NCBI RefSeq assembly: GCF_988243305.1
Contig: NZ_OZ547136.1
Length of the DNA stretch: 64,000 nt
Direction: 5' to 3' (one strand)
In this document: positions 3,001-6,000 of the stretch, piece by piece
Layout: each line of letters begins with the position of its first letter
How positions within the stretch are numbered: the stretch's first letter is position 1
Position numbers: made by a program

Positions 3001-6000
3001 CTATTTATACCTCGCCAACATATTCAGCGAGTAAGCCTTCCAGCGTTACCGGTGGTGTTGTTTATACGATGTATAGCTCACATCAGAAACCTACACCATC
3101 AGATATTGGAGCGCTGCCAACGACTGGAGGGACTATTTCAGGTCCGTTGTCTGTTACTGATGGGATCACCGGGGCACTGAAGGGGAACGCCGATACCGCG
3201 ACGAAACTTGCGGCAGTCCCAAAAATTAACGGTGTTAAGTTTGATGGCTCGGCGGATATTAACCTCACGCCGGAAAATATTGGTGCATTTGCCCGACGTT
3301 CGACGGGGGCTTATGCGGATTCGGATGGAGCCGTTCCCTGGAATGCCGAATCAGGCGCTTACAATGTCACCCGCTCTGGCGACAGCTATATTCTGGTTAA
3401 CTTCTATACCGGAGTCGGAAGTTGCCGGACCCTGCAGATGAAGGCGCATTACAGAAATCGTGGTCTGTTCTACCGTTCTTCAAGAGACGGTTATGGTTTT
3501 GAGGAAGACTGGGCAGAAGTTTATACCTCGAAAAATCTTCCACCAGAAAGCTACCCAGTCGGCGCACCAATCCCGTGGCCATCAGATACCGTTCCGTCTG
3601 GTTATGCCCTGATGCAGGGGCAGACTTTTGACAAATCTGCTTACCCGAAACTTGCAGCTGCTTATCCGTCAGGCGTGATCCCTGATATGCGTGGCTGGAC
3701 GATTAAGGGCAAACCTGCCAGTGGTCGAGCCGTATTATCTCAGGAACAGGACGGCATTAAATCGCACACCCACAGCGCCAGTGCATCCAGTACGGATTTG
3801 GGGACGAAAACCACGTCGTCGTTTGATTATGGTACTAAGTCTTCAAATGCCACTGGTGACCATAACCACAGCCGAGGCACTATGGAAATTACCGGTACTC
3901 TCGGTTACTTCAGAAGTGATAGCGGTAATTTCTATACAGCAAGTGGAGCATTTACACTGGGTGGCTCTGCGCCAGCCCATGGATTTACGGGCTCTCAATT
4001 TACTTATGGTGTTCCTGTAAACTTTAACGCTTCCAGAACCTGGTCTGGTGCCACAAGCACTACAGGTAACCATGCGCACTCTGTTCCAATTGGTGCTCAT
4101 GCGCACTCCGTTGCGATTGGTTCACATGGACACACCATCACCGTTAACGCTGCTGGTAACGCGGAAAACACCGTCAAAAACATCGCATTTAACTATATTG
4201 TGAGGCTTGCATAATGGCATTCAGAATGAGTGAACAAGCACGGACCATAAAAATTTATAATCTGCTGGCCGGAACTAATGAATTTATTGGTGAAGGTGAC
4301 GCATATATTCCGCCTCATACAGGTCTGCCAGCAAACAGTACCGATATTGCACCACCAGATATTCCTGCTGGCTTTGTGGCTGTTTTCAACAGTGATGAGT
4401 CATCGTGGCATCTCTTTGAAGACCATCGGGGTAAAACGGTTTATGACGTAGCGTCAGGGGACGAGTTATTTATTTCTGAACTCGGTCCGTTACCGGAAAA
4501 TGTTACCTGGTTATCGCCGGAAGGGGAGTTTCAGAAGTGGAACGGCACAGCCTGGGTGAAGGATACGGAAGCAGAAAAACTGTTCCGGATCCGGGAGGCG
4601 GAAGAAACAAAAAACAACCTGATGCAGGTAGCCAGTGAGCATATTGCGCCGCTTCAGGATGCTGCAGATCTGGAAATTGCAACGGAGGAAGAAACCTCAT
4701 TGCTGGAAGCCTGGAAAAAGTATCGGGTATTGCTGAACCGTGTTGATACATCAACAGCACCTGATATTGAGTGGCCTGCAAATCCTGTCAGGGAGTAATC
4801 ATTGGTATTATGCCGCAGCACGTCTTAAGCAAGAACGTGCTGCGGTTGGATGCTATTTTTTCCCTGAAGCGGAAAACATTACTACAGTACCTTGAACCTT
4901 GGTTTTAACATTCTCGAAATGCTCTGAGAGTATATGTGTTAAGCCTTCTTCGGAATCTTTTGTGTTTGAAAAGATGCCTTTCTGATTGTAAATGCGCATC
5001 AGTTTTTGACCGAAGCTATTGTGCACAACTCCATCGCCAAGAATTGTGGCTCCGTATAGAGTTCCATCGTCAGTTAAGGCCTGCGCCGCATTGCGTATTA
5101 CACAGCTTTTTGTAGATATATTTCCAGGCAGGCAGTGAAGAAGGTAAAACATGGAAATGGAATCAAATTGACCATGTAACGCCGCGGGATAAGGTTCAAA
5201 AACATCATGGCTAATTTTATGTTTAATTTTTGATTCCCCAGCCCTTGTAGATGCCGCGTTCAGGCTAGCTTCGTTCAAATCCATTAAAGATATCAGACTA
5301 CTCTCAGGTACGTGAGTAAGGTAAAACCCAGTTCCAACACCAATATCCAGATGGTTGTTACCTACATGTTCCAGAAAGTGTGGAAGAAGGTGTTCCTTTG
5401 TAGGACATCCCCATGCAAGCCGATTTGATACTCCCAAAACCCACCAGTCATAAAGCTTTAGGGTAAGTGGTGTGTAAATTTTAGCCCCATCATCTGTGTT
5501 TTTTTTCATTGATTTCACCATGTTATAGTTTTATTTGTGAATTAAATCAATTATGGCGATGAATTACAAGGGGTTAAATGCTGCCGCAGCATAGCGATAT
5601 TGAAATAGCCTGGTATGCTTCGATACAGCAGGAGCCGAATGGCTGGAAGACCGTCACCACACAGTTCTACATCCAGGAATTCAGTGAGTATATTGCGCCA
5701 CTGCAGGATGCTGTAGATCTGGAAATCGCAACGGAGGAAGAAAGATCGTTGCTGGAGGCATGGAATAAATATCGGGTATTGTTGAATCGTGTTGATACAT
5801 CAACTGCACCTGATATTGAGTGGCCTGCAAATCCTGTCAGGGAGTAATCATTGGGATTATGCCGCAGACACGTCGTATGCAGGAACGTGCTGCGGTTAGT
5901 TTGTGAGCTTTCGATAGTGGTTGTTATTTTTGCCCTTATTTGTTCCGGAGGCCATGGTTCAATGGTCCGTCTGCCCCCTGTGGTGATGTCAGCAAAATCA

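Follow-up and report, generated by a model that had tools for sequence, protein, structure and literature searches.

The window, by which we mean the whole 64-kb stretch of DNA analysed, begins inside a lambdoid prophage, and the locus described here is the right end of that prophage, which is inserted in ompW. Beyond lom (335-934), it carries stf (1086-4214), the full-length tail fibre assembly gene tfa, hairpin A, a methyltransferase gene on the minus strand, a truncated tfa-like ORF (tfa'), hairpin B, a tail-fibre remnant and attR, in that order. The tfa gene (4214-4798, plus strand; 194 aa) matches Pfam Caudo_TAP (E = 2e-44) and phrog_105, and is 93% identical to lambda tfa. On the 3' side of hairpin B lies a conserved flank, TTAGTTTGTGAGCTTTCGATAGTG (5896-5919), common to lambda and DinI-type loci, followed by what is left of a DUF4376/tail-fibre-type gene, interrupted by a stop (5944-6213, plus strand; PGAP annotation of a 99.6% identical locus, with matches to phrog_1141 and phrog_7703), which is the constant right flank for this prophage type. 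An AT-rich stretch separates the remnant from a 3' fragment of ompW adjoining the right attachment site (6436-6561, plus strand; PGAP annotation transferred from locus L001). Because this fragment and then yciE, yciF, yciG and trpA/B adjoin the right end, we place the prophage in ompW; no tRNA genes were found near the attachment site.

An earlier note on this DNA had proposed that two direct repeats of about 214 bp and about 90% identity, each covering the last ~52 codons of tfa, the stop codon and a downstream hairpin, flank the methyltransferase gene exactly. Local alignment bears out the repeats themselves: positions 4633-4847 (copy A) and 5682-5897 (copy B) form a direct repeat in which 196 of 216 columns are identical (90.7%), with a single 1-nt indel located in the hairpin. 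BLAST within the window extends the pair to 227 nt (89.4%, E = 1.5e-82), a repeat search reports the same pair broken in two by the indel, and MAFFT is concordant; with all 64 kb as the BLAST target, no third copy appeared. Copy A starts at tfa codon 141 and so takes in the last 54 codons, the stop codon (4796-4798) and hairpin A, and copy B correspondingly comprises a tfa 3' end, stop codon and hairpin B. The longest run of perfect identity measures 49 nt (4757-4805, paired with 5806-5854). The claim of exact flanking holds on one side only: only 5 nt separate the end of copy A from the methyltransferase stop (4853), but copy B begins ~160 nt past the methyltransferase start (5521), the gap being filled by a 56-nt AT-rich intergenic region and then by an unrelated segment that we call N'.

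Hairpin A (34 nt, 4812-4845), which lies between the convergent tfa and methyltransferase genes, has a predicted energy of -30.6 kcal/mol (z = -5.8) and hairpin B (35 nt, 5861-5895) one of -24.1 kcal/mol (z = -2.5), so that both fold far better than shuffled controls. Variants of the hairpin show C-G to A-U covariation and G-U intermediates, along with some mismatches. Hairpin A is identical to the terminal stem-loop of the Rfam CssrB model, a Shigella sRNA model that ends in the hairpin A sequence on the tfa strand. On the methyltransferase strand a canonical U-tract is missing from both hairpins, and the stable stem lies 7 nt after the methyltransferase stop; the hairpin is probably a shared terminator of the convergent tfa and methyltransferase genes. 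Hairpins that lack a methyltransferase beside them (hairpin B, the second lambda hairpin and those of DinI-type loci) precede a conserved box, ...CTTTCGATAGTG. After hairpin A the sequence changes 7 nt past the stem, running into the methyltransferase stop codon, and the methyltransferase therefore directly abuts the tfa hairpin. A further Rfam model, IS009, matches at 4557-4755 with 224.5 bits (threshold 117) and scores 112.5 bits on tfa' at 5601-5804. Since the stronger match falls inside the intact tfa reading frame, this model appears to describe tfa coding sequence, and the family probably represents that rather than a small RNA.

The cargo between the repeats is a class I SAM-dependent methyltransferase of the YbcY-like type (4853-5521, minus strand; 222 aa), recognised by Pfam Methyltransf_12/23/25 and by phrog_2132 (E = 4e-157), itself a phrog of unknown function. 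Its PDB matches are to small-molecule O-methyltransferases and are weak (E about 1e-3), matches to NCBIfam models lie far below the cut-offs, and no significant PADLOC match indicated a defence function. The gene has a G+C content of 41.1%, as against 47.4% for tfa and 54.0% for stf, and the 56-nt intergenic region separating it from the divergent tfa' (5522-5577) has only 27%. A sigma-70-like promoter match upstream of the methyltransferase on the minus strand (5550-5577; TTAACC-16-CATAAT, 9/12) comes from a consensus scan only, and the number of such matches is at the background level (4, against an expectation of 5.6).

The tfa' ORF (5578-5847, plus strand; 89 aa) is TfaX-like and matches phrog_2341 over its full length. 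It joins N' (5578-5670) in frame to a tfa C-terminal domain: residues 31-86 align to Caudo_TAP positions 75-130, and the first ~31 residues have no Tfa similarity. The earlier description of the second copy as a truncated tfa-like ORF fused to an unrelated N-terminal segment is thus accurate, with Caudo_TAP confined to residues 31-86; PGAP labels the ORF a pseudogene. A search with the 89-aa ORF returned relatives from E. coli or Shigella exclusively, all with the same N'/tfa junction and every one opening with the same 45-residue N-terminal sequence; the same search found no longer parent protein of N', residues 3-37 of which match phrog_3893 weakly. One junction in all relatives points to a single illegitimate in-frame fusion. 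Counts of an intact tfa' ORF among 51 IMG/VR loci are 44 and, for lengths of 88-89 or 101 aa, 48.

In two IMG/VR loci (L089 and L138), N' runs into unrelated DNA rather than into tfa', and the methyltransferase is internally deleted, with its last 36 nt and the upstream region kept. Because these loci carry N' without tfa', N' belongs to the cassette. Taking them as an ancestral state, in which N' stood by the hairpin with no methyltransferase, was considered and rejected: they are internal deletions that retain the last 36 nt of the methyltransferase.

Where did copy B come from? Codon differences between the copies number 14, of which 10 are synonymous and 4 non-synonymous, and identity is uneven along the repeat: 103/117 positions agree proximally, but 60/62 do so in the distal coding part (divergence of 12% versus 3%). 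The copy-B-specific SNPs of the proximal part are common to tfa' behind unrelated fibre genes in 2G7b, O157 and K-12. Mostly synonymous differences, uneven divergence and SNPs common across contexts argue for a distinct, functional tfa gene as the source of copy B; on these sequence comparisons, copies A and B derive from different tfa lineages. The distal end of tfa' varies as well. It occurs as the window type with hairpin B, as a K-12 form, with an IS66 insertion (O157) and as a 'PTSPAE' tfa allele, and in the PhiR26/2G7b type it departs after window position 5802. The simplest reading of these variable ends is repeated unequal crossovers between tfa' and a resident full-length tfa. Tfa proteins consist of a variable fibre-binding N-domain and a highly conserved C-terminal helical domain (PMC9608196), and the conserved coding sequence of the latter supplies DNA homology between otherwise different phages. 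Copy B is part of the cassette's own history, not a generic docking site.

The cassette is widespread. Its unique part (4853-5670) is present in 3,843 of 5,426 complete E. coli genomes, at up to 4 copies per genome, and the exact window arrangement including the right flank occurs in 365 complete E. coli genomes. Phage records that give a propagation host and a complete genome carry it too, among them PhiR26_1, PhiR29, PhiR30, 2G7b and ev243; PhiR26_1 and 2G7b are viable phages. Of 120 sampled IMG/VR contigs, retrieved via the hairpin pattern, ~33 are of the window type, ~18 have the cassette but not the second hairpin, and in ~25 a DinI-like gene comes after the hairpin. The literature searched on these genes and RNA families contained no published description of the tfa-end repeat.

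Comparison with other lambdoid prophages qualifies the idea, also raised in the earlier note, that the repeats mark an exchangeable cargo site. It stands in a loose sense, as an accessory-gene hot spot with alternative cargo (ea47, DinI-like genes) at the level of the hairpin; between tfa-type repeats, however, only the YbcY-like methyltransferase was found and no alternative cargo. In lambda, ea47 sits between two hairpin copies; in a yecD-site prophage of O104:H4, tfa and the hairpin are followed by a DinI-like gene; and in O157:H7 strain 86-24, katN and yciE/F/G-like genes are added between tfa and hairpin A. The region 3' of tfa is therefore a general accessory-gene hot spot in which the hairpin is a recurrent boundary. 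The locus has no dedicated exchange machinery: it lacks a recombinase gene and a fixed crossover point, and a scan of window positions 1-12000 for Chi sites, as a recombination hot spot, returned none.

We then asked whether natural strains have lost the cassette. A synthetic deletion junction found a contiguous match in two genomes, and a 451-nt junction probe identified 20 complete E. coli genomes in which tfa, hairpin B and the right flank are contiguous, with no cassette. Eight of the 20 empty sites were aligned and proved to carry diverse tfa alleles, one of them (rl0044) at another chromosomal site. The notion that all empty sites are deletions was rejected on the strength of this allelic diversity and of the different site of rl0044; most of these sites are probably ancestral and never occupied. 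Evidence for deletion is accordingly restricted to strains 190693 and EFF60, for which near-identical cassette-bearing relatives exist and no close relative is without the cassette.

For strain 190693, the 24 closest matches to the segment from tfa to trpC all bear the cassette. Compared with B1.H1.39, it has zero mismatches over 820 nt on the left (copy-A type, the whole tfa) and zero mismatches over 5,093 nt on the right (copy-B type, hairpin to trpC), with the switch from copy A to copy B falling within a 39-nt block of perfect identity. EFF60, the left side of which closely matches cassette-bearing prophages, differs from strain 98198 nowhere on the copy-A side and at five positions in 5.09 kb on the copy-B side; its copy-A allele (ACGAAC) is not that of 190693, and its switch falls in a 35-nt block. 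Both crossovers map to 4780-4818, among the longest identity runs of the repeat. By these alignments, 190693 and EFF60 are two independent recombinants between copy A and copy B, and they lend support from natural variants to the suggestion that recombination between the repeats can delete the cassette. The stf region of 190693 is only 97% identical to that of B1.H1.39, so the cassette may have been lost by unequal crossing-over with an incoming phage and not by intramolecular deletion. For RecA-dependent recombination, perfect identity over roughly 25-30 bp is required, and the window repeats offer a perfect run of 49 nt. Between lambda and Rac, Red-beta is known to recombine stf/tfa sequences of 88% identity (PMC3945230).

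Taken together, these observations are in our judgement best explained, with good though not overwhelming probability, by a moron that carries a recombination scar and moves via general homologous recombination. A short native N' on the 5' side of the methyltransferase would once have been joined illegitimately, in frame, to codon ~138 of a tfa of foreign lineage, giving rise to tfa' of the tfaX type; the tfa donor would have been a different lambdoid lineage. Through the conserved Tfa C-terminal domain, tfa' could then pair with the 3' ends of tfa genes in other phages, and unequal homologous crossovers within it would join the cassette to different right arms. In the ompW prophage, such a crossover may have retained the distal end of the resident tfa together with hairpin B, extending the repeat to 216 nt. 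As the natural variants show, the two direct copies are substrates for general homologous recombination, whether by RecA or a phage Red-type recombinase: a crossover in the 35-49-nt identity block from the last tfa codons to the hairpin removes the methyltransferase and N' and leaves tfa intact.

A more local origin is unlikely, in which the end of tfa underwent duplication on the spot (insertion of the methyltransferase might, for instance, have generated a long target duplication) and copy B then drifted as a pseudogene. The layout does resemble an insertion with a ~225-nt duplicated target, PGAP does call tfa' a pseudogene, and frameshifted tfa' variants exist. An excess of synonymous over non-synonymous codon differences (10 versus 4) is nonetheless unexpected for a drifting pseudogene. 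Divergence is 12% proximally and 3% distally; moreover, the copy-B SNPs and the N' junction are common to the 2G7b, O157 and K-12 cassettes behind different tail-fibre genes, and filled and empty loci agree at 99-100% in their flanks, as against only 90.7% between the repeats. We regard as similarly improbable that the methyltransferase and tfa' form a selected divergent two-gene module, the 89-aa protein being functional (for instance by blocking the tail-fibre assembly of competitors) and the repeat a by-product. The in-frame fusion, an ORF intact in most of the 51 IMG/VR loci, a family (phrog_2341) that matches end to end and tight linkage to the methyltransferase across 56 nt would all suit such a module. 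By its Caudo_TAP match, however, tfa' is without the fibre-binding N-domain (PMC9608196), and it has suffered many independent frameshifts and truncations, including those in K-12 and 2G7b. Its 3' end is freely swapped for other tfa alleles, IS66 or unrelated sequence, no known defence family is matched, and loss of the cassette leaves viable-looking prophages.

The least probable account, to which we give very little credence, makes the hairpins recognition sites of a site-specific cargo system, either a Gin/Pin-type invertase segment or something integron-like. The same hairpin does recur where cargo begins or ends, at the methyltransferase, at ea47 and at DinI-like genes; invertases are well known from tail-fibre loci, and in L089 a Pin-like ORF adjoins a tfa fragment. 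The repeats are nevertheless direct and not inverted, the interval from lom to attR contains no recombinase gene, and the methyltransferase junction falls 7 nt outside the stem rather than within it. In the natural recombinants the crossover is placed at the 5' arm of the hairpin or upstream of it, in long identity runs with no fixed point, which is typical of homologous recombination. Specific elements of related kinds were also considered and set aside: an invertible tail-fibre segment (Gin/Cin/Pin), given direct repeats and no invertase among the ORFs from lom to attR; a transposable element with target-site duplication, given no transposase and 216-nt repeats of 90.7% identity with mostly synonymous differences; and an integron gene cassette (attC), given no integrase, no AAC...GTT core pairing round the hairpin and a junction outside the stem.

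Returning to the moron with its recombination scar, one may ask whether tfa' itself is kept for a function, either as a portable homology handle for Red-mediated moron hopping or as a Tfa oligomerisation-domain poison against competing phages; we think this improbable. An ORF that is in frame, mostly intact and present in 71% of E. coli genomes would fit a function, and frequent frameshifts with free replacement of the 3' end count against one.

No new mechanism emerges from the locus, nor is an old question resolved by it. What it offers is a clean, naturally replicated case of gain and loss of an accessory gene in lambdoid prophages, in which a conserved gene end and its probable terminator hairpin serve as the joint for homologous recombination and in which parent and product sequences are base-for-base identical outside the crossover. 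The K-12 'pseudogenes' tfaD, ybcY and tfaX become intelligible as pieces of one widespread cassette, and the methyltransferase, being unstable in its presence or absence, is an unreliable lineage marker.

The structure is already known: it is an ordinary mosaic joint of lambdoid prophages, annotated in K-12. There, the DLP12 genes tfaD-ybcY-tfaX have the same order and orientation and are 96.6% identical to the window over 1,465 nt (window 4360-5824), and the second tfa fragment has the same N'/tfa fusion junction. DLP12 differs in that a truncated tfaD is joined to nohD, ybcY carries a frameshift, and tfaX, interrupted by a stop, ends in another distal sequence that lacks hairpin B; the DLP12 repeat is only ~154 nt long at 84% identity, and the right side of DLP12 consists of appY and ompT, not of a DUF4376 remnant and attR. 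The lambda b-region offers a second likeness, with the tfa hairpin at 22572-22607 and another at 24161-24195 bracketing ea47 on the opposite strand. Together with ~24 nt of flank, this second hairpin is a near match to hairpin B, but in lambda only the hairpin is duplicated and not the tfa coding end, and the cargo is ea47. Exchangeable effector loci downstream of tail-fibre genes were reportedly described in EHEC lambdoid prophages by Tobe and colleagues in 2006; the window shares with them variable cargo between tail-fibre genes and the attachment site, and differs in carrying a methyltransferase, not a type III effector.

Morons, in the concept of Juhala and Hendrix, are extra genes of lambdoid phages that lie between conserved genes and have their own promoter and terminator. 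The window cargo resembles them in being absent from otherwise identical loci, in its precise boundaries and lower G+C content, and in having a candidate promoter-like site, a 3' hairpin and a position in a hot spot downstream of the tail fibre. It departs from them in borrowing the tfa hairpin instead of bringing a separate terminator and in bringing along a relic of the 3' end of the adjacent gene, and it is because of this relic that the cassette is bracketed by 216-nt direct repeats. A mechanistic counterpart is the relaxed recombination between temperate phages and defective prophages, through 88-98% stf/tfa homology and by Red-beta or RecA (De Paepe et al., 2014; PMC3945230). This is the mechanism that we propose for linking and losing the window cassette; the homology here is shorter (216 nt, with a longest perfect run of 49 nt), and that study measured intermolecular marker pick-up and not deletion between direct repeats inside a single prophage.

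In a prophage of Escherichia coli O157:H7 86-24 (locus L004, 837-3050), a manganese catalase gene and yciE-, yciF- and yciG-like genes lie between tfa, the gene upstream of the repeat-flanked cargo, and the cassette carrying the YbcY-like methyltransferase. The native yciE, yciF and yciG directly adjoin the ompW attachment site in the window (compare 6620-7994), and the presence of such genes in both places suggests that a prophage of this kind once captured flanking genes of its host. Two IMG/VR loci (L089, 3056-3245; L138, 12419-12608) carry a methyltransferase gene that is internally deleted, leaving its last 36 nt together with the upstream region; in both, the N′ segment that forms the start of tfa′ in the window (5578-5670) runs on into unrelated sequence instead of tfa′, and in L089 an ORF for a Pin-like invertase adjoins a 3′ fragment of tfa. 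On the other side of tfa, stf varies in length among otherwise near-identical prophages (3,027, 3,129 and 3,171 nt); its long low-complexity stretch, rich in Ala, Ser and Thr (1500-2600), also gives rise to an antisense ORF of 385 aa.

The constant right flank is a fragment of a DUF4376/tail-fibre-type gene with an internal stop (5944-6213). The prophage arm that holds this remnant has a second position at which cargo varies: in strain NMBU-W13E19 (L012, 2202-3031), Rha-family and Ash-family genes separate the remnant from the ompW attachment site. The interval between the remnant and the ompW fragment in the window (6214-6435) is very AT-rich (32% G+C), with long runs of A, and presumably contains the right attachment site. 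In strain rl0044 (L017), the module of tfa, hairpin and remnant is also present elsewhere in the chromosome, close to uspF/ompN.

Searches against Rfam returned two matches to the sRNA family IS009 (RF02111; threshold 117 bits), one at 4557-4755 (224.5 bits) and a second at 5601-5804 (112.5 bits). The first lies wholly within the intact reading frame of tfa (4214-4798), and the end of the model coincides exactly with the breakpoint that recurs in tfa′ (4755/5804); because of these two features, the family seems to be a model of the 3′ coding sequence of tfa and of tfa′ fragments.

The hairpin that follows tfa (4812-4845) recalls a further RNA family, CssrB (Chromosome-encoded Shigella sRNA B). 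The terminal stem-loop of the CssrB model in Rfam is identical to this hairpin, base for base, and the remainder of the model has no match at this locus; the identity hints at a stable 3′ end that the hairpin gives to an RNA in vivo.
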